Shown here: positions 6,947-32,087 of the stretch, piece after piece | Position numbering within the stretch: the first letter of the stretch is position 1 | How the letters are laid out: the number at the start of each line of letters is the position of its first letter | Assembly (NCBI GenBank): GCA_002633005.1 | Contig: NMRA01000001.1 | Span: 839,755-903,754, forward strand | DNA from: Phoronis australis | Taxonomy: Eukaryota; Animalia; Phoronida | Length of the DNA: 64,000 nt | Direction of reading: 5' to 3' | Made by a program: the position numbers and the translations under genes | The notes under the pieces: model-generated | What the model saw: only the letters and a program-made list of their open reading frames with translations | What the model was told of the DNA's origin: nothing | Database searches by the model: none

Positions 6947-9900
6947 CGAGATAGAACCTGCATGTCAGCACCGCTGAAGCACGTGACGTTAGGATAAGGT
7001 GCCTACTAACAGTACCAAGCTGCTGATGGGAACGCAACGCAAGCTCCCTGGCGAGGATCACGAGCACGTACGCCTGACGAAAGACAGTCCCAGCTTTTCG
7101 GTCTGCATATTTAGTATGGAGAAGATGACTTATCACAAGTGGTGCAAATTGCACTAGCTGAAATAGCGCTGAGCCTAGCGACTGAACTCGTAACCTGTTC
7201 TGTGAGAGTGTGTGGACGGCACTTTAGACAAAGTCGTCACAAGTTTGCCTAATTAAAAGAAGTCGATAAAATTAAATTAAAGCACTCTCCCTCCGACTTA
7301 GATTCAAGTCAAACAAATTAATTATGAACCCGTTTAATAGTTCGAAACTTATTAAGACACAACGTAGGACCTCCGTGTATTTAGCTAAATAAACCAGCAA
7401 ACGTATACACTCTGATTTTCGAAAGTTTGTCAAATCCATCCGACCTGTTTTCGAGGCCCCTACNCTACGGGCAAATTAACCCATCACGATAAGTCTTGCG
7501 ATTTGTCATATTAATATGACAATTTTAGGTTTTAATGACGATGGCGGTCTATGGCTATTTTGTGGAAATAACGATGACCGGGTATCATTTGAATATTGCG
7601 AGATGAACATAGATTCAGCGTACAAAGTACGTATCTAGTATTTGCCTAGAGCCGTCTTGTGATCAAACCCCACATGCGAGAAGCTTTCGGGAGGTAAAAA
7701 CCTAAGAAATATTATAGTCATAAATAAAAACGAAACCCGCCCCCCTTTCAGTAACGCTACGACAATGAGCAATATCTCATTGCGCTACGACCTCGATAAG
7801 AATCAAGACGTCGCGAGATTACCTGAGAAATTGCCGTGTATTTTAAATAAGAACACGTGACTTTGGCTAGCGTAGGTCCCAGCGTACTGGACGCACGCCC
7901 GTACTGCAACGCAACCGATCTAATAAGCTATCCACAGTACATTTCAAAACTACACGATAGACGTTTTCACATATATCATCTATCAAAAAACTCTTACCTG
8001 TAGATAGGTAATTGAAGTAATTAGTTTATGGCAAATGTCAATGCCTATTGACTTTTTACTGAAGAGTGTAATTGTGTCAAACGGCACCAAAGGTCCAATT
8101 GAAGGTGGACGAATGCCTAACTAAATGATAGTGATTATAAAATAAATTATTCAACTTTTGCTTATATTTGGTATAATCATACAACATCAAGAACAGATGA
8201 ACGGCCGGGTTTCGCAATTCGGTTGAAAAACGACGGGTTACGAAAAGTTTTACGGACAGTAAAGAAGGTGACGTTTAATGACATTACGTTACGCCTGCCC
8301 CGATCGGCTTCCTGAATCGCAAGCATAATGATCCTCCGTTTCTGACAATGGGACCATCAGACCGCAACTATTCCAAAAACGTAGATGGAATCTGTTCAGA
8401 AGAAGTTTTTGGTGATAACAATTTTCAACTTACTTCATTTGTGCTAAACAATCATTTCACCCTTTAATTCCATAGCAAGAAACAATACCGAACAAACGAA
8501 TGCAAACAACTCCCGCGCAAGTGACACGAAACTACCTCAGCCGTGCCTAGTTTGATACAGAAAGTGGCATTCTAGTAGTCCCAAAGTTCTGATCAATGAG
8601 AGATGCTTTTTACAGAAATGATTTGCCCCTCATATAATGACATGCATTTTAGCAGGAAGACATTATTTCTTGATTTTAGAGAATTTAGGGCAATGAATGT
8701 TTATTATACAATGAATTTCATGCCCATCAGTTGCAGGTCGCGTAGGAGTGATTTCTTTATTAAACGCTCCTCCTATCGGACATAATAACAGATGCCTGAT
8801 AACTACCTATGTGTCTTATTTACCAGCATGTCAATCGGAAGGTCACTCTTCTTTGCACGACTTTGTTAATCTGTGCCTAGTTGTTGATGACAGAATAATA
8901 AAACGGAATCACGCGAAGCAATGCAAAGGGTCACGAAAGCTAGTTTCCGAGCATTTACTACACATACATGACTAGCATGACATCTATCTACCTCCACACT
9001 GCACAGCTATTTCAGTGGAGACCTCTGATGGGACGTGTAGCCTGTGCTTGCAGTCTTCACAGCAAACACCTGCCTTCTGTCAAACAAAATTCAGCGACAT
9101 CTATTGAACTTGATCTAAACTAAACTATTCTCAACTTTTTGATGCATAGATTTTTAAGAGAGTTCTGGGATTTGAAACCGTCAGTTCGTTATTTCTCGAG
9201 GTCGTTTCCCGCATAAAATGATCAGGCGAGTCTAGCCTGCTTTCTAAGCCTGGTTTTGTGAAACTGTCGGTTCTTTTCAACACCAGATGTCACGACTGAG
9301 TAGGAAATAATTTTGACATGAATTTGACATGCGGGTGGGTTACAGCAACTTCATACTGACATTTGAATATCATTGCATAAAATCCTAAGAATATTTCAAA
9401 ACAAAAAATTATATCAAAATCGCAAGTTGATGTTTAATATCAAATACTTAACCAGGAAAACTTACGCAAGTTCAGAGGAAATATGAAAAAGTCTCTTGAC
9501 TTCTGCCATCATTGTGTTCGCTCATTAAATCAAAACTTACGAATCAAATCTAAAATAGTTAAGATATCTGAAAAATAATAAAATGACACCTACACTCCCA
9601 GCAGATTTTCATGCTATAAGTCAGTTTTAACTTAAATATCACTACATAAATATTGAATAGACAAACCATAATTATTATATCATTTTGACTCGAAATTTTT
9701 TAAAATTCAGAATATTACGTGCTCCTGATCCAGACGATACCTCAGTATTCCAGGTAAAATTTGTGTAGTGAAATCATTGCTGCTTCCCCGGCTTTCACAC
9801 CTTTTACCATAGAACTCTAGCCCTGGAATGCCAACTCCCGCACGTGACCCAAGTATTCTATTATTAGAGCTTGCGACATTGAGACTGGCCGCGAGAGTTT

Positions 9901-12900
9901 GCACTGAGAATTTCTGGCTGCCTGATCGACTGAGTTTTGTTCAAGAGTTATAGTTATCAAATCAAGCCTAATTTCATTGCTTCATTTTCATTTTGTTATC
10001 TTTTCAGCTCCAGTCGTAGAACCACTTTCCGGCGACAACCTATCTTTATTACCTGCCAGTTTTTCAACAAGACATTTTTGGGTGTTAAAATCGTGCTACA
10101 ATATTTTACGGAAACAAGTTAGGTCTATATTTGGCCAAAATGAAAGTCATTTTAGGCCCTGAAACAGGCGTGTTTACCTAACATTCGGAAAATTACTCAT
10201 AATTGCTTACCAAAGTGCATGTGTGTGTGCGTGTGTTTTTATCATAATTGTTTTCAATTGTTTCTGTAATTCATTTGTGCAATATTTACCTGTTGCCCAG
10301 ATGCCACTTTTTGTTAATTCGATTCCTGAGAAGTTAGCCTACTGTTACCTGTGATATTTACCTATACCCATGAAATCAAATTAAAAAATGAAAAGCTTAC
10401 CTTGGAAAAGAACCCAATCCAGTACTTCTTGTTGCTGACAGCGTACAGTATATTTGACAATTGCCCCGCTTTAGGCGGACTGTCCCACTTTGTCGATTTT
10501 ATCCGCCATGATCCCGCCACACCATCTAAACGCCCCGCTTCTTGACTCACGGCCAAATTGTCATAATCATATACTATTTAATTTCCCACGCGACATAGCC
10601 ATTTTTTCTCGTTCGACTAAAAAGCAAAAACGGGAAGTTTCGTGGGTTTTTGCGGCACCTGCAATTTCCCATTAAGCTATAAAAAGCAACAAAAACGCTG
10701 TCGGGTATTTCTGGATGTTCCATCACGTCTCGTTCGACAAAAAAGTTGTCAGTACGTCTTTGTGTGTTGCAGCGAAAACTTCACCCATACATTTTGGCTA
10801 ATATAGACCCAGATGTCCCAGTTTTAATCCTGAAGTCCCGCTTTTCAATCCAGGTATTCCGTTTTTTCGTTCTTGAATGTTGGCCGTGACAACTATGCAA
10901 CAGGTGTTCAAAGTAACATTGTCTCTTATTAGGAATATTGTTATTTACCAGAATCCAATTTCTTTAGCTGTAACATAACAATCGTAAAAATATGTTCCAA
11001 TGTCTCAACATACCCTACATGTATCAGGATCACTAACATTTACTTTCTAAAGAGGAGTTTATTTCTAAACCTTTATCGAAAGGTCTACACAGCAACCAGT
11101 GGGATGAGCTAACCACAATACATTTCAAAGCTACGAGATAGGTGTCTGCCCTTTTTTGTATCTATCAGGAAACCTTTATCTGCTAATTTTGGATAGATAC
11201 GTGGAGCAGTTTATGGCATTTTTCGTAAATATAACTGCATTCTGAATTTTACTGAAGAATACAGTTGTATCAAACGGCACCAAATGTCCAATTAATAATA
11301 ACTTATAAAGATGAATAATTTTTTAAGAATGCCTGACTAAGTTGTCCACAACAAGTGTGATAAATCCATATTCTAAAGGTTTTGTCTTTATAGGGTAGAA
11401 ATCTTTTGAATCTGATTGAAAGTACTTAGCTAACGGCTTAACTGGCCATTTACAAAACCTATCTGGTTCATTTCCTTTTTTATGTTACTACTACACGTTG
11501 TTATTTTTCGCATTATGGCAACACTCTTGGTTTTTGGAATTAAAAACATTTTTATTCGGGTATGCGAAATGATAATTACTTATGAATTAAAGTAGTAATC
11601 TTTTGCTTCAGGTATAATCATCAAGAACTGACAAAAGTTTTCTAATGACATGGCTCTTATGAAATTCGATTGAAAAACGGCGGAGTTGCGAAAAGTTTTA
11701 CTGACAGTGAATCCATAGCAAGTATACACACCGGAAAAAAACGAATGCAAACGAATTCCACGCATGTGCGGCGCAACCTCAGCGGCTGCGAGACCGGAGT
11801 TGGCATTCCAGGACTAGAGTTATGCTTTCACTAAGTCTTCATTCCACAATGATGTCGGAAATTGAAAACTAAAACGTTTCTTTGAATAGAGTAACAAAAA
11901 GGATAAAATTGAGAGAAAAACAATGGTTCAGAAATAATGAACATCATTCGGCATGGAAAGAATTTCTAAGAAATTCGGATTTATTGGATTAGGAAAATAC
12001 TATTTTTGAAGACTGCGCTTTTAAATTATTAGCGCAGGACTTTCAAATGACTTTTTGAAGAAAAATGTAAATTTATAAAGAATGAATGAAAAAAAAATTA
12101 AGGCAATGTTTATTTGATATTGTGGTCTGAGAAAATGTAGAAGCACACTTTGCAAGTAATTTATCTTTAAATGTTAACACTGTGTCACCAGTCATTTCTT
12201 TTGGGAGGATTTGACCGACTGTCGATATCATTAAAGTGTACACGGTGGTGCGGACGCCAAGAATCATCACACGTTTTCAGTCACTCAAGAGGTCGGCGTC
12301 CGCCAACCACACCAAGGATGGTGGTGGCCAGGAAAATCGCGTTGGAATTGGCGTTTATTCAATACAACGGATACGTGCGTACTATCGCAATAAACGTTGC
12401 GATAGTTGTGTGACGCATGTAACCACTAAACATCATGAAAAGGTCTCCGGCTCTAACTGAAATGTGAAGGCGTCAATTATGTTTTACAGGCTGGTATCTT
12501 TCATTTTGTTTGCACCGGATATAAAGGAAGCTGTTAACGATGCCACGCAAACATCAAACCGACACCATGATAAAGGAGGACTTAGACGAGGAACTGCTGT
12601 GCGTGAACATGGAATCCTCGTTAATCTCAAGATCGCGTACGTGTGAACTTGGAACTGAATATTCATTAAGGAAATCAGGTGAAATTTTTTGTTCAGTGTA
12701 AAGGATTTTTGTTGTTATTGGCCTCGTGGTCACACATTTTCTCCTTTAGCGAAACTTGTGTCAAAGGATTGAAGGAATATGTGAATGCTAAATCAATTAT
12801 TGTTTGATTAATAAGATCGCCAACACTTGGAAAATACATGTATTGGTTAAAATTTGTAATCTTATTAACATGTAATTTGATTTAGTACAGTGCAAATTTT

Positions 12901-14074
12901 TATCAACGTGAACGTGATTATCAGAGTGAACTTGTCTAGTTTGCTCGTGTATTCCAAGTTCACGCATACGCGATCTTGAGATTAAGCATGATTCCACGTT
13001 CACGCAAAGCAGAACGAGATAGAACCTGCATGTCAGCACCGCTGAAGCACGTGACGTTAGGATAAGGTGCCTACTAACAGTACCAAGCTGCTGATGGGAA
13101 CGCAACGCAAGCTCCCTGGCGAGGATCACGAGCACGTACGCCTGACGAAAGACAGTCCCAGCTTTTCGGTCTGCATATTTAGTATGGAGAAGATGACTTA
13201 TCACAAGTGGTGCAAATTGCACTAGCTGAAATAGCGCTGAGCCTAGCGACTGAACTCGTAACCTGTTCTGTGAGAGTGTGTGGACGGCACTTTAGACAAA
13301 GTCGTCACAAGTTTGCCTAATTAAAAGAAGTCGATAAAATTAAATTAAAGCACTCTCCCTCCGACTTAGATTCAAGTCAAACAAATTAATTATGAACCCG
13401 TTTAATAGTTCGAAACTTATTAAGACACAACGTAGGACCTCCGTGTATTTAGCTAAATAAACCAGCAAACGTATACACTCTGATTTTCGAAAGTTTGTCA
13501 AATCCATCCGACCTGTTTTCGAGGCCCCTACATAGTCATCAGTTAATTTTGGCTACATTGATGACTGCTTTTAATGTTGATAATATTGAGGATGCGTCTG
13601 ACGACCTCTTTGCCGGTACCAGCCATTTTTGAAATTCGACCCCACCCCTTTTAGAAGCTGGTGGCGCTTATGAACCGAGATCCGCCAGTGGAATCGGTTT
13701 ACACCCCACATACCACCATTGACGCAGACCATTATACGCTCCCAACGTTGGCTGTCATAAATCCCACGAAAAACGTTTCTAGTCGTGGAATACGATCGAC
13801 AATCCTGAGCAAGATTACACTATTAAGTTGTAGATAGAGTTTAGAACTCATGGCACATGAGGTAGGTCTACTCGGGATCTTCGAATTGAAAACATTACAT
13901 TAAATTTAGTTTTTGAATTTCTCGGGTGGCTCACCAAAAATGGCCGTTGGAATTGAATGGCACCGAAATTCACTTTATAAACGTAAAAAAATAAGTAAAG
14001 AAGAAATGCAAATCAACAATTATTAAGTCACAAACCCGAATGCTCTTCAAAAACATTTCTTTATTTATACCACA

Positions 14075-17000
14075 TAACGCCATTACAGTAGATATTCAAT
14101 TTTTCAATCTTGTAAGGAACTAACAGTTATTCCTCAGACTATGCGATGTTGGCGAATAAAACGACAAGAGGTTACGAACCAACTTGTACAGCCTGTTCTC
14201 AAGCAATAACAACATTATCAGTACTTTGGAAGCCCTGAAATCAACTCCAAGTTTACTAGAGAACAGAGTGAGACCAACTTCGTAAGGGTATTACCGGTAA
14301 GTAGTGTAAATCATTTTTGGAAGCCTGGCGGCGTTATAGCCGCTACACCATCTTGGGTAGTATTTACACAGAAATTGATACAGGAATTTTCAAAAAAAAA
14401 AACGCACATTCCTCATGCACTGGTATTTGCTTAATTTTGCATACAGAAGGGTATTAACGTAATGAACTCACACTGTGGTACAACGCAATTAAGCTCACAT
14501 GAGTGACATTCAGAGATGGCATTAAAAAGATACAAGCCGTGGGCGTAGGCTATAGATGGTTTGTAAAACAACTTCTGAGTCCATTTTCGGGGTCAATTTT
14601 GTTTGATACCAAAAACTAAGAAGTTCCCGTGTTTAATCATATTTCCATGAAATGTGTAACTTAACATGCGGTATTTTTCGAATATCAAATTTTTGGTATT
14701 ACATTTAGCAACAAAAGAAAAATAAAGTTGCCTCCCACACGCTCACAGGATGAAAAAATTGGAGCTACGGCCCACGACATATCATGACCTTGTCTGACCA
14801 GCAGATAACACACACACGCACGCACGCACGCACACACACACATATCATCTAAATGAAATAGTGAAATTAGTGCTCCAGAACAAAAAAATAACGATAACTA
14901 ACAATATGGTAAAATCTCGCGAATTTCGGACAAAAATAATTACCAAATGTGACCCTTTTTCATTCCCAAGGGCACCCAACAGTGATGTGAATGCCCACAA
15001 ATTTTCAAAACTTTCTTTCATGACAAGGGAATAGTAGCTTAAGACCTGGATAATGACACCAACACTAGGCTAGGCCCTTTTGTATCTTAAGGCATCAAAT
15101 GAATTCTGGCAACAGCCACTCAAGCCTATTCATCCGACATGCCGATCTTAATTGAGCGCGTAAATCTTTGTTAGAAAGCAGTGCGCTTGTAATGACTTCC
15201 AACAGATAGGTATATTGGATTGGAAACACCTATTGTATTGTATGGGCTGATGGCAAGTGATTCAGTTTAGTGGGGTGTAATTTGTAAGTGCAACTTATAA
15301 GTCACGTGATCATAGCTGTAGAGCAAATCTGAAAATGGAATATCCTTTAATTTTGTGCTACATGTAATGACAGAATAAGCATTCACTTGTGGGCCATATT
15401 GTGTCTCAAATTGGTGAGATTTTACGTCAACAGTCCAGTATACAACAAAAACCCAAAGAAAAACTTCTGACTTTTGATAATTAAGAAATTAACAAAGTAA
15501 GAATTACCACTGCTTACCAACTGAAGAATTCCAATTGATGGGTTCATAAAGTGACTAATGATGACTAATGGCACCAATTTCATATTTCAACAAATACCCA
15601 AAATATCTTGCGTTCAAAAACAGAGTACAGGTTTTTAAGAATGGTGTTAAAGGCGAAGGCAACCTTTTTCCATGTCATTTTGAGCTAAAATAAGGTTGGT
15701 TGGTTATNTAACGCCATTACATAGATATTCAATTTTTCAATCTTGTAAGGAACTAACAGTTATTCCTCAGACTATGCGATGTTGGCGAATAAAACGACAA
15801 GAGGTTACGAACAAACTTTTACAGCCTGTTCTCAAGCAATAACAACATTATCAGTACTTTGGAAGCCCTGAAATCAACTCCAAGTTTACTAGAGAACAGA
15901 GTGAGACCAACTTCATAAGGGAATTACCGGTAAGTAGTGTAAATCATTTTGGAAGCCTGGCGGCGTTATAGCCGCTACACCATCTTGGGTAGTATTTACA
16001 CAGAAATTGATACAGGAATTTTCAAAAAAAACCGCACATTCCTCATGCACTGGTATTTGCTTAATTTTGCATACAGAAGGGTATTAACGTAATGAACTCA
16101 CACTGTGGTACAACGCAATTAAGCTCACATGAGTGACATTCAGAGATGGCATTAAAAAGATACAAGCTTGGGCGTAGGCTATAGATGGTTTGTAAAACAA
16201 CTTCTGAGTCCATTTTCGGGGTCAATTTTGTTTGATACCAAAAACTAAGAAGTTCTCGTGTTCAATCATATTTCCATGAAATGTGTAACTTAACATGCGG
16301 TATTTTTCGAATATCAAATTTTTGGTATTACATTTAGCTACAAAAGAAAAATAAAGTTGCCTCCCACACGCTCACAGGATGAAAAAATTGGAGCTACGGC
16401 CCACGACATATCATGACCTTGTCTGACCAACAGATAACACACACACGCACGCACGCACACACACATATCATCTAAATGGAATAGTGAAATTAGTGCTCCA
16501 GAACAAAAAATAACGATGACTAACAATATGGTAAAATCTCGCTAATTTCGGACAAAAATAATTATCAAATGTGACCCTTTTTCATTTCCAAGGGCACCCA
16601 ACAGTGTTGCGAATGCCCACAGATTTTCAAAACTTTGTTACATGACAAGGGAATAGTAGCTTAAGACCTGGCTAATGACACCAACACTAGGCTAGGCCCT
16701 TTTGTATATTAAGGCATCAAATGAATTCTGGCAACAGCCACTCAAGCCTATTCATCCGACATGCCGAACTTAACTGAGCGTGTAAATCTTTGTTAGAGAG
16801 CAGTGTGCTTGTAATGACTTCCAACAGATAGGTATATTGCATTGGAAACACCTATTGTATTGTATGGGCTGATGGCACGTGATTCAGTTTAGTGGGGTGT
16901 AATTTGTAAGTGCAACTTATAAGTCACGTGATCATAGCTGTAGAGCAAATCTGAAAATGGAATATCCTTTAATTTGTGCTACATGTAATGACAGAATAAG

Positions 17001-17271
17001 CATTCACTTGTGGGCCATATTGTGTCTCAAATATGTGAGATTTTACGTCAACAGTCCAGTATACAACAAAAACCCAAAGAAAAACTTCTGACTTTTGATA
17101 ATTAAGAAATTAACAAAGTAAGTCTTACCACTGCTTACCAACTGAAGAACTCCAATTGATGGGTTCATAAAGTGACTAATGATGACTAATGGCACCAATT
17201 TCATATTTCAACAAATACCCAAAATATCTTGCGTTCAAAAACAGAGTACAGGTTTTTAAGAATGGTGTTAA
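14075..17271. repeat. Near-identical tandem duplication: 14075-15650 and 15709-17271, joined at n15708 (probable haplotypes)
   Basis: taacgccattaca... restarts right after n15708; the copies align to ...aatggtgttaa and differ in SNPs and microsatellite length. Confidence 0.9.
15651..15707. mobile_element. Terminal fragment of the Kolobok-like element (same TIR as 51647), cut by the contig end
   Basis: TTAA (15647-15650) then aggcgaaggcaacctttttccatgtcattttgagctaaaataaggttggttggttat, identical to 51647-51703. Confidence 0.85.
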
Positions 17272-17384
17272 TGTTTGGCGTTACACTAACTCAATGAAAT
17301 TACAGACAAAAAAAACAGGATTATTCCAAGACTTTGATAAGGCCTAAGCAAGAATTATAAGTCTTCACACGCCATGTTGGTCTC

Positions 17385-17600
17385 ATCACATAACCTAAGA
17401 GTTAAGTTTGAAAAGATTTCCATCTTGAGCGGGGATCGAACCCGGGACTGCCTGCTAACGTTGCAAGCGCTCTTGTATGGTGGTCCTCAGGATATATCTC
17501 CGTGGACTAGAGCATCTGCACAATTAGCAGACAGTTCCGGACTCGAACCCTGGTCAGGACAGAAATCTTTTCAGACTTAACTCTAGGTCACGTGATGTGA
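17385..17600. repeat. Palindromic element with tRNA-like (B-box) arms
   Basis: tcacataacctaagagttaagtttgaaaagatttc...ggggatcgaacccgggactgcctgctaa...gctct vs agagc...ttagcagacagttccggactcgaaccc...gaaatcttttcagacttaactctaggtcacgtga; a deleted remnant sits in the paralogous segment at ~25390-25490. Confidence 0.6.
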
Positions 17601-17936
17601 TCAAGAAATGTTGTGATAGAAGACTAATATTGTTGCTTATGCAGAGTTCAAATTTGGTTGAGAAATCATTGTGAATAGTTACAAATGGAGAGATTCAACA
17701 ATTTTGGATACTCGAAGGTCTCGCCCGCATTGAAGATTTTGCGTCCATAACAACAAAAGCACCTAGAACCGCACAAACTCATCCAAATTTGAAATCTTGT
17801 AACAGGCAAAACGTAACATCCGCTTAAAAATAAAAAAGCACCAATAACCAAAGCTAAAGAGACTGCTGGAGGAAGCTATCAGCTCACAGAGTGAGAAAAT
17901 ATTGCCATAATTTTCAGTTCTAAAACAAAATACAAA

Positions 17937-18026
17937 CTAGCCAGACCGGATTTCGCAGTGTAGCATCACACACAAAATGTCCTTTTTGTCATCTCCCGTG
18001 ATCTCCCACTTCAAGCCAACTTTCAT
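17937..18026 (-). CDS. NPC2: NPC2/ML-domain protein, terminal coding exon, distal cassette B
   Basis: Acceptor ttgttacag|ATG; encodes MKVGLKWEITGDDKKDILCVMLHCEIRSG*, matching the NPC2 C-terminal VxWxL...FC...I strands; phase 0 fits exon 20385-20560. Confidence 0.8.
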   Translation of the reverse strand: MKVGLKWEITGDDKKDILCVMLHCEIRSG

Positions 18027-18200
18027 CTGTAACAACGGCCAATTACAGTACAACGTATCATCTATAACATGAAGGAACCCCACACCACAATTTCTGTTTA
18101 TTTATTTAAATTCTTTAAGAGACTGGTTGACCAGTTCAGTGTATAACAGCTTGGAACGCAATACTTCAAAGTATACTTCACAGTATTCAGTTACTTATTT

Positions 18201-19482
18201 GAAGCGTTTCTACAATGGATTTATTCATTTTTGAAGTTTTAGACCGAATAAAATATTTTTGTAACACGAAATCTAACAGAAAACACTTATTTTGGCAAAT
18301 TGAAGAATTTAGACTTTTAAAGAAACATTAATATTTTTTGGTTCCCGCCTCATGATGTCATCAGTGGAAGACGTTGATAAGTTGACAGCATATGCAATGA
18401 TGGATAGTAGCCACTGTCGAAGTTACGAAGAATTCGAGAGCGAGTTTGAATATTACGAAGACAGGTATGGAGAAGGGAGTGAAGACGACAGTCAGGCCCT
18501 AAGTGAAACAGATGAGTTAAACCTCGCCATATCGGCAGACTGCGTGTTTGAGGCAGAACGAAATTGACCCTCCCCCGAGTCGAACCGAGTTTGCGGGCAC
18601 TTCTGATTTCAGAACTGACATTTTTGGCTTTATTATAGCGACTTTAGTGTCGAATAATATGTATATGTCATGAACTGTAAATCTATAATCGAAGTTTTTA
18701 TCCCGACTGTTGCGAATAAAGGCCACCTTGATTTCAATTCTTCGAATCCTAAGAGCGTTTTTAATGAACGATCATATCTAATCATTCATGATTGTGATGC
18801 TAACTGAATTTTATGTCTGGTAAATGATAATCGTTTCTTGTCTGTTCCAAAATACTGAGCTGTACTGACGCGGCTGCCTGGAAACTATGGTATACGGAAC
18901 ACTCAATATGAGCATGACAACCACGTTCCCAGAAACGGTACAACACAATACACTGTTTTTGTGCATCAGATGCACTTACACGTTGGAGAATCCTTCATCA
19001 AATTCCCGTTTCTGCGACGGCTCGAAGCACGACTCTTTAAAATGGGCTAATGTGAGCCCACAGTGGCCTCGATCTGAACTAGTGATCGTTTGCTACACCA
19101 TGCACTGCTATACCCACGTCTCATGTACAAACCTGTGCCTTTTCTGAGGTACATGTATCTTAAGGTCTTTTAGAAACGCAAAAACTGAAATATTGTATAT
19201 TCGATTGCTATTACAGCATCCTATGCACGCGCATCTTTTCTACTACTTGTGTCAGGCAATGTTCAACTCTTTTCGAGACCACTCCGCCTCACAACTTGTG
19301 TAAAACAACAAACAATACAATGGCGGAGACCGGACTTCCACTGATGAGATCACACAATTTTTTATTTTTCAATTTTTGCGTTTATTTCTTGACTACAAGT
19401 ACACAAGTTGAAGATATACGTACATAAAATATCATACCAAAATTGTTGTTAACCGAATTCAAGCACTTATGATCATGAAGGG
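18201..19482 (+). mobile_element. ~1.3-kb insertion in the cassette B intron, possible decayed piggyBac-like remnant
   Basis: Absent from the paralogous intron (26101-26150: ttacttatttaaacttc). Ends ...gaaggg next to tttaa; carries an acidic ORF (18352-18567) followed in another frame by PPPSRTEFAGTSDF, reminiscent of piggyBac N-termini. Family assignment is weak. Confidence 0.45.
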
Positions 19483-20384
19483 TTTAAATTTCTTGATAAG
19501 AGACTGATTAATCACTTCAGTGATGCCAAGGGGGCCCAGTCTGAATTAATAATACAAAGCAGTTTCAATTAAACTACTAAAAGAATTAAAACAAATTAAG
19601 GGCTATATACATATACAAAAGAGTCAAAAAGAAGATTACATCATTAAATATTTATTCTGTCCCTAAAGGTGAAGTTTCATCACCTTTATTCCAGTAAAAC
19701 GGACAAATGCAGAAAAGCATTTCAGTACAGGTAATGAATGATCACTTTTACCAAAAATACAGTATGCAGCTGATTTATTTTCGTTAATTGAGAGAACTAA
19801 GCGACAAGAAAATGCCTAAATGCAAAAAATATAACCCAAACATTTAAAAGTTAGTCTTGAAGGATAAAGCGAGAAATGACTACATGAATGTGACAATGAC
19901 CTTTGACCTGCCGACGTCAACATCGAAAGCACAGTAGTCATCGAAAACTTTGGATCAGCCACTGCAGAGCCGAGGACAGTTGCCTGCGTAAATATTTCCA
20001 ACTTAAACCATATAAACGTACCAGAATTGAGAAGGTGGATTCCAAATTAATCTAACGAACTTGCTTTATCCACTTCCTCAGTTTTTTCTCGTCTTAGACT
20101 GATGTCGGAAAGGCGAAGAACTGATCTACGGATTTTTCAAGATTATCTAACTTTCTCCTGTCGCTGTTACAGCCCAAAGAACAGCAGTATTCTATTGGCA
20201 ATGGAAAGGCGAATAGAGTAATAAAATGTAAATAAAACAAGAACAAACAATATGTGCAACTCCAAAGGCGCGAAAACGAGCGGCTACAAAAGTGTCGGAC
20301 GAAATTGCGGCATCCTTGGTAAATACAGTGAGATTCAAGTGTTACAGTGTAATCTGGGATGGTTCTGTTATGAGCTTCACTCAC

Positions 20385-20560
20385 CTCAGGATAGATCTTC
20401 GCAATAGAAACAGTGGCGTGGTAGGAGTATGTCTTCTTTGCAACAAGAGGGCACACGATGCCAGAGTTCTTGCATCCATCAGGATTCCGCAGGACGAAAC
20501 GGATCCACACACCATACACATAACCATATGCAATAGACGTCAATGACTTTGAGGGCTCTC
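20385..20560 (-). CDS. NPC2: NPC2/ML-domain protein, exon 3 equivalent, distal cassette B
   Basis: tctacag|...|gtgagt, 176 nt, phase 1 to phase 0; (G)EPSKSLTSIAYGYVYGVWIRFVLRNPDGCKNSGIVCPLVAKKTYSYHATVSIAKIYPE contains the NPC2 signature NPDGCKxGIxCPL...TYSY...YP. Confidence 0.85.
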
Positions 20561-20651
20561 CTGTAGATACATTGGTTATGTAGACAGTGTCGGATTATCA
20601 AAGCTTGGGGCCCCACACAAAATAGGGGATACAAAAATTTGAGGATACAGT

Positions 20652-20712
20652 TAGGGTCCGAAGCATTGAGGTCTGGACTCCCGTCCGGGAGAGCCGGGTT
20701 CAAATCCTGGTT
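20652..20712 (+). repeat. Degenerate tRNA-derived (SINE-head-like) sequence; paralog at ~26688-26748
   Basis: B-box ccgggttcaaatcctgg preceded by an anticodon-arm-like ctggact...ccggg; no intact acceptor stem. Confidence 0.45.
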
Positions 20713-23460
20713 TTACTGGCTGACAAAATGCGTCTCTAACGCTTCTAAGCAGGGTGAATGTGCGCAAGGGGGTGAATGAGAACCTGGACATAATGCGANG
20801 AAATTTAAGGCGAAATGTGGGAATTGCAATGATTATGGCCCCCAGATATTTCATAACAAGGGACCCCGAGAAACTTTCATCTGGCACTGTTCATAGACAA
20901 TGATTACGATCACGACTGCGTTTTTGCCACAACAGACGAATTATGGTCTCTAACAATAAGGGAAGTTCAAAGCAAAACTGTTAGCAAAAAGTGACACTTC
21001 TTGTGGAAAGAAATCTAGATCCACATATGTTGGGTATTAAATGCCTTCAAACTGGAAAACTAATTTTTGATCCAGAAACCAACACGTTGAATGAGATAAA
21101 TCTAATAGTGATGAGTGGTCTAAAGTGAATGTTAGACTCTTTTGCGGAACATGAGTTTATAAGGCATTTAACAATACGAAGAAAAAGTCTGATGTATGAT
21201 GTTTCAAGTCCGGAGCAGACAACAACCATCATAGAAATCGATTAATAATATGTAAATTGATTGTGGTCCCACAATAGCAGATCAACCATGATGTAGAACG
21301 GGTGAATAGGAATGCGTGTCAGCGGGGATACTGCGGAGCTTAAGTAACTAGTTCCTATTTGTGCTTTCTACTTGTGACGTGACAAAAACTTTTTACTGTC
21401 ACATGGGACCAGATACCGGTGGCCTCTAGAGGACGAGGGGGTACTTTATAACTGTTGTTTGAAAAGGTTTTCTACTAGTCAATGGGAACACTAAAATTCG
21501 GTCTTGAATCGAAGTTAACAGCGCAAATTAATTCTGAAGTAAAGAGGTGGATTTAACAGGGAAGCGACGACCCTTCGTTACAGTGGGAACACTTAATTTC
21601 GATGTCATCAGAGGTGTCGGCAGGGGTAGCTGCCTGCTTTTGCCAACAGTGGGCGGTCACTGGTTACTGTTTGCTAACATTTTGTTCAAATAATTATTAT
21701 TTTGCCGGTATAAGCATTCTGTTTCAATTGATCCGCCATTCTTTCGTTCTTGAATGTTGGCCGTGATAACAACGCAACAGGTGTTCAAAGTAACATTGAT
21801 TCTTTTTATGAATATTGTTATTTTCCAGTGTCTGACTTTCTTTAGCTGTTACATGACAATCGTAAAATGTGTTCCAATAATAAATGTCTCTTGCTTATGG
21901 TAACATAGGCTACAAGTATCAGGATCACTAAAATTTACTTTTTGAACAAGACTTTATTTCTAAACTTTTAGGGAAAGTTCTACACTGCAGCCATAATGAT
22001 CTATCCTCAGTACAATTCAAAGATACGTGATAGATGTTTGCCCATTTTTATCAATCAGAAAACCTCCAAATTTCCATTCTGTATTTTTACTGAAGAATGA
22101 AATTGCACGAAATGTCCGATAAATTATAACATACAAAGATGAATAATTTTGAATGAATGTCTGACTAAGTAATCCATGTTAAGTGTGAGGGAGTCCTAAA
22201 GCTCTTGTCTTTATAGGCTAGAAATCAAAGGAATCTTTGAAATTATTTCCTTAGTCATTCATATGTTACTATTATACGCTTTTATTTTTCGCATTTTGGT
22301 AACACTCTTAGTTTTTGGAATTAAAAATATTTTTAAACCAGTCATGCAGATATGCGAAAGCAGTGTGAACTGATGGGGCTACCCTCATTGTAAATATTAC
22401 ATTAATAATTACTTATGAATTAAATTATTAATGTTTTGCTTCTGGTATAATCATCAAGAACTGACTAAGAGCTTTCTAATGATATGGCTCTTATGAAATT
22501 CGGGGGAGTTGCGAAAAGTTTTAATTACAGTAAATTCCATAGCAAGTACACACATCGAACAAATGAATGCAAACGAGTTTCACGCATGTACAGAGCAACC
22601 TCAGCGGCCGCGAGACCACATTCCAATGCTAAATTATGCTTATACTAAGTTTTGATTCCCCAATTATGTCGAAAATTGGAAATAAAAAGTTTTTTGAACA
22701 GGGAAACAAAAAGGACAAAATTGCCAGATAAACAATGGTTCCCAAATGATGAACACATTTCGACATGGCACTAAAATTTTTACAAAATTTGTATTTACTG
22801 GATCAAGAAAAAACTGTTTTGGAGGAGAATGCGCTTTTAAATTATTAGCGTGGGATTTTCGAAAGACTTTTTGAAGAAAAATGTAAATTTATAAGGAATG
22901 AATGAAAAAAATAAGCCAATGTTTAGTAGATATTGTGGTCTGAGAAATTGTAGAACCACACTTGGCAAATAATTTATATTTTAAATGTTAATACTTCGTC
23001 ACCAGTCATTCCTTTTTGGAAGATTTGGCAGTGTCGATATCATTAAGGATGAGGCTGACCATCTTATTGCCAGTACCAGCCACTTCTGAAATTCGACCCC
23101 AAACCAAAGAGAAGCTAGTGGCGCTTATGTCCCGAGCTCCGCCAGTGGAATCGGTTTACACCCCACAGACCACCATTGACACAGCCCACTATACGCTCTC
23201 GCCTTTGACTGTCAGAAATTCCACAAAGAACGTTATCTACTCGCGTAATAAGATCGAGTATACTGAGCACGATTATACTGTTCAATTGTAGATACAGTTT
23301 GTAACTGATGACTAGAGGCATACGAGGTACTCGGGATCTTCGAATTGAAAACATTACATTGAATTTAGTTTTTGAAAATTTCTTGTGGCTCACCAGAAAA
23401 CGGCGGTTGGAATAAGATTGCACCGAAATTCACGCTATAAGCATGAAAATATGGTAGACA

Positions 23461-23552
23461 CATGGACGGCGCAGCCCATGGTCTATGAGCGATGCACTAC
23501 AGGGGGGCTGGAGGCTATAGCCCCCCACTTTTTCAGGGCTGCACCGCCCATG
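23461..23552. mobile_element. 92-bp MITE with 5-bp TSD (agaca)
   Basis: agaca|catggacggcgcagccc...gggctgcaccgcccatg|agaca; not present in the paralogous segment near 13985. Confidence 0.75.
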
Positions 23553-25847
23553 AGACAAAATACAGAAGAAATACAAATAAACATTTATTAAGTCCAATAA
23601 ACACATATTCCCCCACAAAATCTTAGTAGACCACTTAACGCCATAACATTGATCTTCAATTTATCTTTAGTCAGATAAAAAGCGATTTTTGGTCTTGCAA
23701 AGAACTAACAGTTTATTATTCCTCAGACTATGTGATTGGAGAATAAAATGACAGGCAGTGACAAACAAACTTGTACAGCCTGCTCTCAAGGCAATAACAA
23801 AGTTATAAGTTCTTTGGGAGCCCTGAAATCAGCTCTAATTTTACGAAGGAACAGACCGAGACCAACTTCATAAGGGTAAGTGGTCTAACTCACTTTTAGA
23901 TGCATGGCGGTGTTATAGCCAGTACACTATCTTGGGTAGTACTTGCACAGAAATTTATACAGTAGTTTCCAAAAACATACATTCCCTTATGCACTGGTAT
24001 TTGTTTAATTTTGCATACAAAAGGGCTTAAAATAATGAACAAACTTTGTGGTACTATGCAATTAAGCTCACATGAGTGACATTCAGAGATGGCTTTAAAA
24101 AGATATAAGCCGTGGACGTGGGCTAGAGGTGGCTTATAAAACCACTTCTATGTACACTTTCGGGAGGAAATTTTGTTTTGATGTGAAAAGCCAAGTTCCC
24201 ATGTTTAAACATATTTCCATGAAATGTGTAACTTAACATGTGGTACATTTCGAATATCAAATGTTTGATATTACATTTTGCTACACAAGATAAATGAAGT
24301 TGCCCCTGACATGCTCACAGGATGAAAAAACTGGAGCTAGGGTCCACGGATGTACCATGACCTTTTCTGACCATCATATAACATAGTATTACATACACAC
24401 ATATGATCCCAATGCAACAGTGAAATTAGTGCTCCACAACAAAAAATAAAGACCGCTAACATTATGGTAAAATGTAACCAATTTCAGACAAAAATAATTA
24501 CCAAATGTGACCTTTTTTAATTTCCAAGGGCACCCAACAGTGTTGTGAATGCCCACAAATTTTCAAAACTTTGTTTCATGACAAGGGAATGACACTTTAA
24601 GACCTGGCTAATGACACCAACACTAGGCTTGGCCCTTTTGTATCTTAGGGCTTCAAAGGAATTCTGGCAACAGCCAGTCAAGTCTATTCCTAAGAGATGC
24701 CCAAGTTAATTGAGTGTGTAAATCTTTGTTAGAAAGTAGAGTGATTGTAATGATTTCCAGCAGATTACGTATCTTCTTGCATTGGAAAATATTGCATTGG
24801 AAACACAAGGGGTATGGTAAGGACTAACGGCAAGTGATTCAGGTTAGTGGGGTGTAACAGGTAAATGCAACTTAAAAGTCAGGCATGTGACTGCAGCTGT
24901 AGAACAAAATGTAAACATGGAATATCGTTTAATTTTGTGTAACATGTACTGACAAAACTGGTGAGATTTTAAGGCGACAAAATAAAAGTTCAGCATACAA
25001 CCAAAACGCAAAGAAAAACTTCGCACTTTTGATAATAAGGAAATTAACAAAGCTTTGTCTGGGAGTCTTACCACTGCTTACCAACTAATGAACCATCTAC
25101 TTGATCAGTTCATTAAGTGACTTATGACAACTAATGACACCAATTTCGTATTTTAACAAATGCTCAAAATGTTCTCCATTAGAAAAGTCTAGGTTTTAAA
25201 AAAATGTCACCATATGTGGTGTTAAACTAAGCCAATGGAATTTCAGACAAAAAAACACAATTATTCCAAGTAACTTTGTTCACAGAAAGAAAAAGTAACA
25301 ATAACATGTATATAATTATGCGGTACAAATCAACACAATGATATGGCCTGAGCAAGAATTATTAGTCTTCTTGCATGCCATATGTTGGTTACATCGTAAC
25401 CTAAGAGTTAAGCTCAAACCAGGACTGCCTGCTAACATTGCAAATACTATAGTATTGTGGTCCTCAGGATATAGCTCCTAACGTGACCAAGAAACGGTGT
25501 GATAGAAGACTAATAACTATTGCTTATGCTCCTAATAATAGCAAAATTCAAATTTGGTAGAGAAATCATTGTGAATACATGGTAGCTATAAACGGAGAGA
25601 TTCAACAATTTTGCAAGCTCGAAGGTTACGCCCGCATTAAAGATTTTGCATCTGTAACAATAAAAGCACCTAGAACTGCACAAACTCGTCCAAATTTGAA
25701 ATCTTGTAACAGGCAAAACCTAACATCTGCTTAAAAATCAAAAGCACCAATAAAAAAAAACTAAAGAGACTGGCTGCTGGAGGCAGCTAACAGCTCACAA
25801 ATAGAGAAAATATTGCCAAATTTTTCAGATCTAACACAGAATAAAAA

Positions 25848-25937
25848 CTAGCCAGACCGGATTTCGCAGTCTACCATCACACACAAAATGTCCTTTTTGT
25901 CATCCCCCGTGTTTTCCCATTTCACGATAACTTGCAT
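25848..25937 (-). CDS. NPC2: NPC2/ML-domain protein, terminal coding exon, proximal cassette A
   Basis: tttttacag|ATG; MQVIVKWENTGDDKKDILCVMVDCEIRSG*. Confidence 0.85.
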   Translation of the reverse strand: MQVIVKWENTGDDKKDILCVMVDCEIRSG

Positions 25938-26421
25938 CTGTAAAAAGGCCAATTACAGTACATAACCTAACATCTATAACAGCATGGAAAAGGATACTAC
26001 TATTTCTGTTTGTTTATCTAAAATTCTTTCACAGACTGGGTGACCACTTCAGTGTATAAGGCCATGGAACACAACACTTCAAAGTGTACTTCACAGTGTT
26101 CAGTTACTTATTTAAACTTCTTTATCAAACACTGGTTAACCACTTCAGTGATTCCAAGAGGGCCCAGTCCGAATTTAAGTAACATTGTGTTAAAGCACAA
26201 AGTAGTTTCAATTTAACTACTAAGACAAATGAAACAAAGTACTATACAGATATTAAAAAAGCTAAAAACAAGATTACATCAATAAATATTCATTCCAAAG
26301 GCGCGAAATCGAGCGGCTAAAAAAGTGCTCGACGGAAATTGCGGCATCATGGGTAAATACAGTGAAATTCAAGTGTTACAGTGTAATCCAACGCGGCTCT
26401 ATTATCAGGAGATTCACTCAC

Positions 26422-26597
26422 CTCAGGATAGATCTTGAGAACAGGAATGGCGGTGTGGTAGGAATATGTCTTCTTTGCAACAAGAGGGCACACAATGCCA
26501 GACTTCTTGCATCCATCAGGATTGGGCAGGTGGAAAGGAACCCACATGTCATACACATAACCATGTGCAACAGATGTCAAGGACTTAGAGGACTCTC
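26422..26597 (-). CDS. NPC2: NPC2/ML-domain protein, exon 3 equivalent, proximal cassette A
   Basis: tctacag|...|gtgagt, 176 nt; (G)ESSKSLTSVAHGYVYDMWVPFHLPNPDGCKKSGIVCPLVAKKTYSYHTAIPVLKIYPE. Confidence 0.9.
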
Positions 26598-28600
26598 CTG
26601 TAGATACATTGGAATTCTAAACAGCTAAATATGTTAAAGCGAAGGGCCCCCACACAAAATAGGGGACATAAAAAATTGAGGAGACAGTGATGCTCACTGG
26701 TTTGAGCACTGGACTTCCCTTTTGGGAGACCCGGGTTCAAATCCTGGTTTTACTGGCTGACAATCGAGCATTGCACGAAATGTGTTTTTCTCTTCTAACC
26801 TCAGTCATAGTAGTGAATGTATGCAAGGGTCTGAATGAGAGTCTGCACATCAAGCGAAAGCAATTTCCGGGGCGGGGGGGCCGTGTTGAAGAAAACAAAA
26901 AAGCGGTACAATCAATCAAAGCTTGTAGTAAAGGGACTCGAAATTACACAAAATAGGGCCTGTCTTGTTGACAAATGGGCCCCTCGCAAGTAGAAGTGAA
27001 CAACGGGTCCCATCTCATTGCCACAGGGGTCCTTGAGAGCTATGACGACCAGGGAATAGCTCCAAAGTTCAGGCAAAAGGTGGGAATTGCACTGATCATG
27101 ACCCCAGACTTTTTACAGCTAAGGGTCTCCGAGAAACTTTTGTGACAAAAATTATGATCATCTTTGCGCTTTTGCCACTACTACAGATAAATTTGGGTGT
27201 GTAAAAAAGTTACACGTCTGACAGTGAAAGAAATATTAATCGAGAGATTGGGCAGTACATGCCTTCAATCAAAACTGGCTATAAAACCGCCTCTGTTCAC
27301 AAAAACTAATTTTTGATCGTTAAAACCACTTCCCAATCTAAGTTAGGAACAAGTTGAACAAGATCAATCTAATAGTGGTAAGTGGTCTAAATTTTAAGTT
27401 AGTCTTTTAGGTAGAACATGGGTTTATAACACATTTAACAATACGAGGATAAGGTCGATGATTGATGTTCCACGTCCAAAAGCAGACGACAACCATCTTT
27501 ATAGGAATAGCTTAATAATAATTGATTGTGGTGCCAAAATAGCAGATCTGAGCCATGATGTTAAATGAGTGAATAAGAAAGCGTGTCAGGAGGAAAGCTT
27601 TGGAGCAGAAATCACACGAAGCATCTATTATATAAAGTGCATCGTTTGCACAAACTCTGTCTCCTCCGCTCTACTACAGACCTTCGTTGCGCCCGTTTCG
27701 TCACTGTCTTGGTCCCAGGTATTGCACCGGCCCCCTATTTGGATTCGAGGTGTTCTATTTTTTTCTCACGGGTTGTTTTTTCGCAGACACGGAGGGAGGG
27801 TGTCCAGTTTCGTACTGGGCTTGGTGACGTCAGTCCGTCGGCTCAACGGCCTGGGTGACGTCACTCCGTTGGCTTAATTTCACTCCCTCCGGCTTCTGTT
27901 GCATATATAATTCATCGGGCCTGTCGCCACCAAAATGCATGATGCCTCATTAAATTAATCTTTTACTCTTCCTTGAGTAAACTAAATTATTTACTCGGGT
28001 GTTGGAAAATTGGGCTTCCTCAGTTATCCTGCTGCTAAAATTGCCATGCACTCTTTGGGTGCCATACGTCACCTATCGGGCCAATTTCCATGTTCTTCAA
28101 TCAAGGAGGTTGCGTACATGTCATAACAATCGGAAGTGCTTTCATTTCGTAATAAATTTTTACTATTTTAATACCAAAAAAAAACAATTTCAGAAAATTC
28201 TCTCGAGAGATATCGCAAAGTTTTGGGAAATGGCGCGTACGTGCCCGTGTCACGAGATTGCACTGTTTTCAAAACCATGGCAGATAGGAATTTTCTTTGT
28301 TACAAAAGGCAGAGAATTACGAAAAATAACGTTTTTTAGATTTTGTTTACTTCTATAAACGGCTGTAACGGGCACTGTGAATGTCGATTCATTCCCAGAT
28401 TCTGCATGCACCCCTGCAGGTTATAAGCTCTAAGTTTCACGATGAGGTGACGAGCTGAGCACCTGGGTTGTGTGAAATTTCGGTGTCTAACAGAGCTCTA
28501 CACATGGCTACCTTGCTGTATGTTGACAACAGTCTTCATACAGCTAGCTGGCTTTCTATCTCAGTATGTACATTTATGATGCAACTTTTGTAAATACATC

Positions 28601-28761
28601 CAGGGGCAGATCCAGGATTTTGAGTTGGGGGGGCAAGGCAAATAGAGCACTAGCCAGAAGTTTGCCCTTCAGACATTCGCACCCCCGAACTGCCAAATGG
28701 AAGCTGGGAGAATTTTAGGTGGGGCCATGGCCCCCTTGGCCTCCCTCTAAATCCGCCACTG
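28601..28761. mobile_element. 161-bp MITE with 5-bp TSD (acatc)
   Basis: acatc|caggggcagatccagg...ctaaatccgccactg|acatc; same TIR type as 40626-41571. Confidence 0.8.
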
Positions 28762-29429
28762 ACATCTATATACTTTGTATACTATACAATATTTTAAATG
28801 CATTCTTAGTTTTCACTTTAAACTGAAGAATATCTGATTAACGTTCTTTTGTGTTACAGCAGGGTCAAATGTTCTGGAAAGAAATTTGTACTCCCTAAGG
28901 GAAGAATCACACAGCCGCACACCTTAATTGCCTACTAAAATCTGACAAGAGGCAGAAATTCTGCTTGAAGCTTTGAACACGGTCTCTTCAAGAAGTATTC
29001 CTGTCTCTTGCGATGAATGACTCGATTGGTTCACTCTTAGGTGTAGCTATTTAACCTTGGCGTTTCCCACTAGCTGCTACCTGTGCGAAAGTTATCAATG
29101 ATATAATGTTAAGGCTCCGTTAGAAACTATTTCAGTCTTAGAGACGAAATAACAATGCTATCATTCTATCACGTTACATTGCACTTGTTAAACAGTGCTG
29201 ATGAGGAGATGCCAACAATGAAACATTTTTAAAATTAAACTTTCATGAAACGCCTGGGCTAAATGCATTAACTGAGTAGATGCGAGCTCACCGTTTCCTG
29301 ACATCGCAGACACAAAGTGTTATGTGTCCTTCTAATTCGCTATAGAAGATTCGATAAGCAAATTTGATATGATGCTGACCAAGGTCTTCTAACTGGCAAT
29401 CATATTGTGTAGACCAATAAAGGTAACTT

Positions 29430-31776
29430 AAAGCTTGCTTATCTGATGTGTGTACTCATTGTTGTATGGTATGTGTATTTATGTGACATTTTGTGGAGTT
29501 ATTATTGCACAGAGATTGTGGATACCCTGTCTATATTTGTGCTCTGTATTATTTTGTAGATATTTTATTATTATTTCATAGATATATAATAGATATGCAA
29601 GTTTCCATATGAAATGTTAATTTAACTTCTTCTTGTAGTACATTGCGTGATACACAGTAGATAGTAATTGCCTAACAGCCCAAGTATGAGCCTTCTTTTT
29701 TATACTGTGTGACACTGTGCACTTAGGATAATGGTTTCTGGTCATTTTGGACAGGTTCGACAGTTTACACAGCCTACGAATATTTAATTTTTCTGTTTTT
29801 GTGTACGTCCATATAAGAAGAAATTTTAATCATCATTATTACATTTACATCAATGTAGATATTGTCTAAACAGTGATTTTGAAAGTGATGCTTTACTATT
29901 TATAATCTTAGTATATGCTAACCTCACTTTTGCTTTTAATTAAGAATCAGTAAGTTACACAACTTTGTACAAGCATCGTATTTCAAATAAAGTCTGAGAA
30001 AAACGTTATCGCAGAACTTTTGAAAGAGCATACTTCAAGGAATCCACATGTAAAAATTCACGTCATTTGCTCTTCCCATTAAAAATGCGACAGCAGAACG
30101 ATTGAAAATGGGTGAAAATGCGCCAGAGCCGCCATCTTGAAAGTGACTTCCAGTTAAACAAAATTTTATAAAAGCAGATCACTAGCAACAAACACGTAAA
30201 CAGTTTGAAAGTTTTTGGTTCGCCAATGCGCCCTCTACAGGAGAAAACGGTTGTGGCCAGATATCGAGGTGCGCATGCACCATTGTCAATATTTCCGCCA
30301 TCTTTGACCAGAAGCCAACATTTTTCAGCACAGTTGTACTATTGTGTTCTATAATAATCGAACCAAGTTTCATCAGCCTTGTACATCAAAAATTGCGGCC
30401 TCTATGAGCATTTGAATGTGAAACTGGAAACAAAATGGCCGCCACATCCGCCATTTTGAATCGGATCATAACCAAAAACAATAGGCTTCCAGGGCTTTCT
30501 GATCTACACATCGTGTGCAAATTTCGTGCAGATATGACGAAAATTGCGACCTGTAGAGTGAAAACAAAAAAAACAAACTTGACGGCAGAGCAACATACTT
30601 ACCNAAAGCTTGCTTATCTGATGTGTGTACTCATTGTTGTATGGTATGTGTATTTATGTGACATTTTGTGGAGTTATTATTGCACAGAGATTGTGGATAC
30701 CCTGTCTATATTTGTGCTCTGTATTATTTTGTAGATATTTTATTATTATTTCATAGATATATAATAGATATGCAAGTTTCCATATGAAATGTTAATTTAA
30801 CTTCTTCTTGTAGTACATTGCGTGATACACAGTAGATAGTAATTGCCTAACAGCCCAAGTATGAGCCTTCTTTTTTATACTGTGTGACACTGTGCACTTA
30901 GGATAATGGTTTCTGGTCATTTTGGACAGGTTCGACAGTTTACACAGCCTATGAATATTTAATTTTTCTGTTTTTGTGTACGTCCATATAAGAAGAAATT
31001 TTATCATTATTACATTTACATCAATGTAGATATTGTCTACACAGTGATTTTGAAAGTGACGCTTTACTATTTATAAACTTAGTATATGCTAACCTCACTT
31101 TTGCTTTTAATTAAGAATCAGTAAGTTACACAACTTTGTAAAAGCATCGTATTTTAAATAAAGTCTGAGAAAAACGTTATCGCAGAACTTTTGAAAGAGC
31201 ATACTTCAAGGAATACACATGCAAAAATTCACGTCATTTGCTCTTCCCATTAAAAATGCGACAGCAGAACGATTGAAAACGGGTGAAAATGCGCCAGAGC
31301 CGTCATCTTGAAAGTGACTTCCGGTTAAACAAAATTTTATTAAAGCAGATCCCTAGCAACAAACACGTAAACAGTTTGAAAGTGTTTGGTTCGCCAATGC
31401 GCCCTCTACAGGAGAAAACGTTTTTGGCCAGATATCGAGGTGCGCATGCACCATTGTCAATATTTCCGCCATCTTTGACCAGAAGTCAACATTTTTCAGC
31501 ACAGTTGTACTATTATGTTCTATAATAATCGTACCAAGTTTCATCAGCCTTGTATGTCAAAAGTTGCGACCTCTATGAGCATTTGAATGTGAAACTGGAA
31601 ACAAAATGGCTGTGACGTCCGCCATTTTGAATCCGATCATAACCAAAAACAATAGGCTTCCAGGACTTTCTGACCTACACGTCGTGTGCAAATTTCGTGC
31701 AGATATGACGAAAATTGCGACCTGTAGAGTGCAAACAAAAAAAAAACAAACTTGACGGCAGAGCAACATACTTACC
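29430..31776. repeat. Near-identical tandem duplication: 29430-30603 and 30605-31776, joined at n30604 (probable haplotypes); contains an interspersed repeat
   Basis: aaagcttgcttatctgatg... restarts after n30604; both copies end ...gagcaacatacttacc. The internal aaaatggc...cgccattttg segment looks like an interspersed (possibly Helentron/HINE-type) repeat. Confidence 0.88.
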
Positions 31777-31976
31777 GAAATTCGAAGAATTCTGCCAAGT
31801 AATGTGTGCTTAAGAAGCTTAATGGATCACAATTCTAGATTAGATAGTGTCAGTGGAAATTTCCTGAGTTTTACACTTTAGGGGAATGGTGCATAATATG
31901 CAACAAGAATTTTCTAAGTATTTAACACTCATTGAGGAAAGGCAAAATTTTCAGGTGACAACTAAATGATACTTAC

Positions 31977-32087
31977 CAGTCTTGAAAACAAGAGTGAAGT
32001 TTGCATTGGTTCCCTTGACCAGAATGCATGCATCAGTTTTGCCATTCACAATGACGTTTGACAATGTGCCAGTGACCGGAACATCCT
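31977..32087 (-). CDS. NPC2: NPC2/ML-domain protein, exon 2 equivalent (single copy in the window)
   Basis: ttttttccag|...|gtaagt, 111 nt, phase 1 to phase 1; xDVPVTGTLSNVIVNGKTDACILVKGTNANFTLVFKT(G) matches NPC2 G.I..V.V..C...PC.L.KG......V.F; splices in frame to either exon-3 copy. Confidence 0.85.

Follow-up and report, generated by a model that had tools for sequence, protein, structure and literature searches.

A shared front half of an NPC2 gene spliced to either of two duplicated back halves in Phoronis australis

The DNA considered here is a window of 64,000 nucleotides (nt) from contig NMRA01000001.1 of Phoronis australis (assembly GCA_002633005.1, positions 839,755 to 903,754), to which all copy counts of exons 1 and 2 refer. 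Its minus strand carries a gene of the NPC2 family in which exons 1 and 2 are followed by two versions, A and B, of exons 3 and 4. An earlier note, made from the letters alone, had described exon 2 and these four downstream exons, and proposed that one promoter serves two interchangeable lipid-carrier halves. RNA evidence comes from three raw-read runs (X1, X2 and X3) and a contig run (X4), picked by species label after a run search with the B stretch had listed no RNA run. The gene consists of the following parts, including the 3' untranslated regions (UTRs).

42026..42101, minus strand: exon 1, coding part (start codon, leader, first cysteine), shared; window search and X3 read continuations
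31977..32087, minus strand: exon 2, shared, its donor used to both 3A and 3B; sequence and RNA reads
26422..26597, minus strand: exon 3A (ML domain, PF02221), 176 nt; sequence, Pfam and RNA reads
25848..25937, minus strand: exon 4A, coding part with stop, 90 nt; sequence and RNA reads
23570..25847, minus strand: 3' UTR of A, end approximate; sense-strand depth and read starts at 23613
20385..20560, minus strand: exon 3B (ML domain, PF02221), 176 nt, spliced from exon 2; Pfam and RNA reads
17937..18026, minus strand: exon 4B, coding part with stop, 90 nt; sequence and RNA reads
14000..17936, minus strand: 3' UTR of B, its distal part present twice in the assembly; depth examined to 16600 only, signal and alignment

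The five exons of the earlier note were confirmed on the sequence, with identical lengths in the two copies, GT-AG introns and open frames. Both routes, exon 2 with 3A–4A and exon 2 with 3B–4B, are open across AG/GT exon ends and finish in a TAG of their own, and with exon 1 added either encodes 150 residues. The 3' end of exon 1 appears as loose ends beyond 32087 in the 391 X3 reads that cross from exon 2 into exon 1, and its hydrophobic leader is, by eye, a signal peptide. Protein and exon-DNA searches of the window found one copy each of exon 1 and exon 2, and no copy of either between the two units, as had been claimed. AATAAA signals of A lie at 23584-23589 and 23712-23717; a candidate for B lies at 14060-14065, with reads aligned only down to 16600.

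The two back halves lie within a larger tandem duplication, which is laid out as follows.

21736..27589, minus strand: duplication unit A (end of intron 2, exons 3A–4A, 3' UTR, downstream flank); self-BLAST
4660..21322, minus strand: duplication unit B, extended by insertions and allele-like copies at single-N joins; self-comparison
21323..21735, no strand: spacer of 413 nt between units A and B, without similarity to exon 1 or 2
20561..21322, minus strand: copied end of intron 2 before 3B, colinear with A across the single N at 20799 (N20799); alignment, with read depth 0 at 20571-20645

Self-comparison places the upstream limits of homology at 27589 in A and 21322 in B, so that the copied unit starts inside intron 2, where the earlier note had put it; downstream, the homology runs far beyond exon 4, to 21736 in A and to 4660 or 10859 in B. 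The units span the final kilobase of intron 2, exons 3 and 4, the complete 3' UTR and flank, and are 68-83% alike in blocks; no repeat accounting for the breakpoints was found in the window. Substitutions separate A and B at 38 of 266 exon positions (14.3%) against 495 of 3144 non-coding positions (15.7%), and thus the exons are hardly better conserved. Gaps are distributed otherwise, and the contrast drawn earlier between introns with indels and exons without them holds in the alignment: 58 gap events fall in the 3144 non-coding nt and none in the 266 exon nt, where 4.9 would be expected (P 0.007). A and B are paralogous segments of a partial tandem duplication, not alleles.

Both splice routes are present in RNA. 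Some 18-19 in 100 of each raw run was examined, reads being aligned at 91% likeness for all joints and, because this likeness could admit a paralogous exon 2, at 96% for exon 3B alone in X2, X3 and X4. At 91%, exon 2–3A junctions are crossed by 11, 15 and 216 reads in X1, X2 and X3, respectively, and exon 2–3B junctions by 1, 2 and 9, the nine X3 reads starting at nine places and having up to 72 letters on their shorter side. The downstream joints, named in the earlier note as 26422>25937 and 20385>18026, are likewise both present, with 11, 30 and 367 reads for 3A–4A and 1, 4 and 41 for 3B–4B; all four joints are GT-AG and on the gene strand. At 96%, four X3 reads extend past the 5' edge of 3B with a 25-letter consensus that equals the end of exon 2 in 25 of 25 letters, and 3B continues into 4B in the loose ends of 23 X3 and three X2 reads with an agreement of 1. 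No read at this likeness enters the intron before 3B (depth 0 at 20571-20645), which rules out an internal start or a retained intron there.

Splicing of B from the shared exon 2, which the earlier note had expected on structural grounds, was therefore found in all three raw runs, in 12 of 254 exon-2 junction reads; at the second joint B accounts for 46 of 454. B is a minor isoform, making up 4-12% of transcripts. Joints of the mixed kinds 3A–4B or 3A–3B are absent from the 15 strongest of 23 joints. On these reads we hold with high confidence that one front half is spliced to either of two back halves. Of the proposed single promoter with two interchangeable lipid-carrier halves, the two splice routes thus stood; the halves are used unevenly, and B as a protein with its own ligand is a prediction.

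The A 3' end is visible in the reads near 23.6 kilobases (kb), with read starts at 23613. In X3 the sense-strand depth is 6.2 just past the A poly(A) site, against 93.8 in the distal UTR, so transcription can get beyond the site; no sense-strand depth is seen there in X1 or X2. X3 alone has sense-strand reads at 22310-23411, about 1.2 kb beyond the main A 3' end, and an 18-read non-canonical joint at 22310-22452, which may reflect a longer UTR carrying a polymorphic indel. Over 44 nt (25882-25925) exon 4A is matched by a third NPC2-like transcript, which diverges on both sides and has, by eye, an exon 3 end and a C-terminus of its own; with 130-441 reads per run it outnumbers A in X1 and X2. 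Because no large loose end is listed at the exon 2 donor, this transcript probably comes from a separate gene elsewhere.

A mechanism that would accommodate these observations begins with the partial tandem duplication, which placed a copy of the end of intron 2, exons 3–4 and the 3' UTR behind the original, and has splicing compete with 3' end formation. Where the exon-2 donor pairs with 3A, the RNA would end at the A poly(A) site; where the polymerase runs past that site before the donor has been used, 3B would be joined and 3A–4A removed as intron. A minority of RNAs would have to read past the A poly(A) site to yield B. The donor lies 5379 nt from 3A and 11416 nt from 3B, with the A AATAAA 3029 nt before 3B. 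Since exon 3 is 176 nt long, carrying both copies or neither shifts the frame, and such mixed products would presumably be discarded; a 3A–4B hybrid would be in frame. The outcome is likely two lipid carriers of 150 residues, with residues 1–62 in common and the pocket mouth predicted to differ.

Exon 3A scores 30.9 bits and exon 3B 25.0 bits against a cut-off of 22.7 for the Pfam ML domain (PF02221), and the Atlas match gave the ML domain and nothing further. Both copies of exon 3 match human and bovine NPC2 (PDB 5KWY, 6W5V, 1NEP/2HKA), B with 36.6 bits against 48.9 for A, and the structural statements that follow were mapped from human NPC2. As no meaningful PDB match was found for exon 4A alone, mapping beyond P120 is by ungapped counting, in which W128 and C140 fall in place. 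Canonical NPC2 has six cysteines forming three disulfides, and binds and transfers cholesterol in lysosomes. The Phoronis proteins differ in that a cysteine stands in five of the six family columns, the second column (cysteine in 91% of 58 homologues) being a gap in the shared exon 2, and in having an extra cysteine, C145. This second cysteine has apparently gone through a short deletion in exon 2, leaving C46 without its usual partner; C145 occurs in both isoforms, at a pocket-lining position.

The swapped half comprises 88 of the 150 residues, and A and B differ at 22 sites. Residues F66, V96, Y100 and P101 of NPC2 (mature numbering) correspond to F84, V115, Y119 and P120 in A and are the same in B except for I115; B keeps the core cysteines, F84, Y119, P120 and W128. 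Seventeen pocket residues are listed for human NPC2 (PMC13050278), 14 of which map to the swapped half, and three of these 14 differ, all between aliphatic residues (V82I, V126L, V143L). Mammalian NPC2 docks on lysobisphosphatidic acid (LBPA) membranes and on NPC1 through a hydrophobic knob (PMC6855803). Four of nine residues in the matching stretch differ between A and B, and the knob and rim changes from A to B are H74Y, P83R, H85V, P87R, I113V, P114S, V115I and L116A, every residue at positions 111–116 being different; the predicted net charge at pH 7 is +7.9 for B and +4.0 for A. On this mapping, B appears to keep its barrel intact while its mouth is remodelled. It would fold and still hold sterol, and would differ from A in hand-off and membrane preference more than in ligand class.

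Considering the question of whether B is, beyond the architecture, a working and maintained protein, we predict so with about even confidence. If the B branch evolved neutrally, its frame and splice sites would stay intact with P 0.04-0.11, and P falls to 0.006-0.024 when three cysteines and a non-polar pocket must be kept too; both tests are post hoc, and B drew attention by being intact. X3 expresses two B haplotypes and has near-even splits at A UTR sites. The changes are clustered (p 0.035), and variants among the exon 3B reads comprise four silent and three replacing ones (P 0.09). Of seven such variants (20412-20555), five carry the A base and none introduces a new base at positions shared by A and B; this hints weakly at gene conversion from A or at changes private to the haplotype that was assembled.

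The strongest competitor keeps the same architecture and takes B as a tolerated leak, a young duplicate with intact sites drifting towards pseudo-exons; we consider this a real possibility, short of an even chance. It would fit the near-neutral rate of amino-acid change in B, its flat share of 4-12%, acceptors nearly the same as those of A and the loss of three conserved prolines and H74, and B would not be needed for dosage, since the further, separately expressed NPC2-like transcript exists. Against it stand the lack of any indel or stop in 266 nt, the kept splice sites and cysteines, the purely aliphatic pocket changes and the slight excess of silent variants in 3B.

Several results weigh against maintenance and regulated use of B. 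The ratio of replacing to silent change between A and B (dN/dS) is 0.57 and does not depart significantly from 1 (Fisher p 0.15). Family comparison covered 145 of 150 listed homologues, the five longer than 310 residues being left out, and the set was fetched with A exon 3 and thus favours A; in it, the commoner family residue at the 22 differing sites is that of A at 15, that of B at six and tied at one, the 15 comparing with 14.8 changes predicted for a neutral B branch. Family conservation is not lower at the changed sites than at the unchanged ones (0.57 against 0.50). B lost H74, P83, P87 and P114, which are kept in 73-89% of homologues, and its replacements are rare in these 145-homologue columns, P83R and P87R below 0.5% and P114S at 1%. 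In the RNA, the B share of X1 and X2 together does not differ significantly from that of X3 (Fisher p 0.15 and 0.80), and tissue regulation of B was not seen in the three samples; contig run X4 has the A joints and no B joint. Within X3, B makes up nine of 225 reads at the exon-2 joint and 41 of 408 at the 3–4 joint (p 0.008). One of the two B haplotypes in X3 has an A-like 5' end, and its being miscounted as A may explain part of this discrepancy.

Among the 150 listed homologues of a profile-free search there was no relative as close as an orthologue (identity over exon 3 at most 58%), and word-based protein searches for relatives gave no matches; the named homologues (six of ten looked up) come from a mollusc, arthropods, a tardigrade and a nematode. 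As no outgroup was found, relaxed and positive selection are not separable here. The most ambitious reading, a young regulated switch in which one promoter and signal peptide supply either of two lipid carriers, the second of them reshaped by positive selection at knob and rim for another membrane, partner or lipid, we consider unlikely.

A more distant competitor, which we hold to be improbable, would take the B reads from another template, either a hidden, near-identical exon 1–2 absent from the assembly or a haplotype (1-2-3B-4B) that lost A by crossing-over between its two intron-2 copies. The search for exons 1 and 2 covered the window, the assembly there has five single-N joins including one 239 nt in front of 3B, the identity of exon 2 rests on four reads and 25 letters, and the samples may be pooled animals. 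However, the passage from the end of A to the start of B lies inside one N-free stretch (20800-30603), and N20799, which the earlier note had feared might hide a separate exon 1/2, has colinear intron-2 homology to either side of it, some 200 nt of A having no counterpart there; a hidden 5' half at this N was rejected on that ground. Moreover, a paralogous exon 2 diverged like exons 3–4 would match 25 letters with P ~0.02 (0.857^25), and a deletion haplotype in one animal would be expected to give B near 0 or 50%, against 8-12% in three runs. The idea that A and B are two alleles put in tandem by the assembler, as happened at four places in the window next to single Ns, is close to refuted, since such allele-like copies differ by 1.5-2.7%, against 15.7% for A/B non-coding sequence, and X3 carries two versions of each of A and B.

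The remaining features of the window bear on its assembly and surroundings. The single-N joins at 7464, 15708 and 30604 adjoin repeats of 1.2-1.9 kb that are 96-97% alike and likely represent uncollapsed haplotypes. The allele-like repeat pairs are:

2048-3941 and 7465-9339
14075-15650 and 15709-17271
29430-30607 and 30605-31780
5725-7463 and 11795-13531

The 10-kb intron 1 contains a direct duplication (34808-35286 and 38814-39267, 71-74% alike) without exon similarity. At 51642-53308, inverted repeats of 142 nt (97.9%) surround a gap of 926 Ns and a reading frame, likely a DNA transposon, and 61 nt of the repeat are found again at 15647-15707; the start of the frame resembles by eye what we take to be a THAP zinc finger. 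At 60573-61124, plus strand, a 183-codon stop-to-stop frame with a serine-rich stretch is possibly an exon of a neighbouring gene.

The shared front half with two back halves represents an early stage of a type of splicing mostly known from ancient examples, with breakpoints, introns and UTRs still alignable and the new isoform already in about a tenth of transcripts. It provides a natural NPC2 pair in which the front 62 residues are the same and the knob and rim differ, these being the surfaces with which mammalian NPC2 docks on membranes and passes sterol on to NPC1. If the regulated switch were true, the NPC2 family, otherwise known to diversify via whole-gene copies, would also do so by splicing; if B is only drifting, the value of the case shrinks to a clean example of cassette origin.

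Shared 5' exons with alternative duplicated 3' exons are found in Anopheles GSTd1 and in Drosophila PGRP-LC and lola, which resemble the Phoronis gene in joining one promoter and N-terminus to alternative homologous C-terminal recognition parts; these systems are older, have at least three alternatives and have shown protein function. Splice variants of An. gambiae GSTD1 do exist, and the available part of PMC4195677 does not describe the exon layout.

Within the NPC2 family itself, the anthozoan (bioRxiv 10.1101/399766) and Clonorchis (PMC6979364) expansions consist of whole genes, and share with the present case diverged variants beside a canonical one, with changes in or around the pocket. 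The string 'splic' is absent from the main text of the former, as far as available, and occurs in the available part of the latter only in a reference title. The diverged NPC2 forms of Aiptasia bound sterols much like the canonical one (bioRxiv 10.1101/399766), which cautions against crediting B with a new ligand. A literature search of partial coverage turned up no NPC2/ML gene whose 3' exons are duplicated and alternatively used, the supplementary event lists of PMC8373072 and PMC9741552 lying outside it.

The architecture itself is already known from human GNAO1, whose last two coding exons are exchanged for a duplicated pair (PMC8373072). Among human tandem-exon substitutions, 77 of 236 are C-terminal (PMC8373072); they are mostly ancient, more than 90% being shared with bony fish (PMC8373072, PMC9741552), and usually lie at the surface and away from ligand sites (PMC9741552). 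As in the GNAO1 type, homologous terminal exon sets lie in tandem in Phoronis and both are spliced from the same upstream exon; unlike in that type, the introns still align at 84%, and the swap takes in 88 of the 150 residues of a one-domain protein, including 14 of 17 pocket residues.

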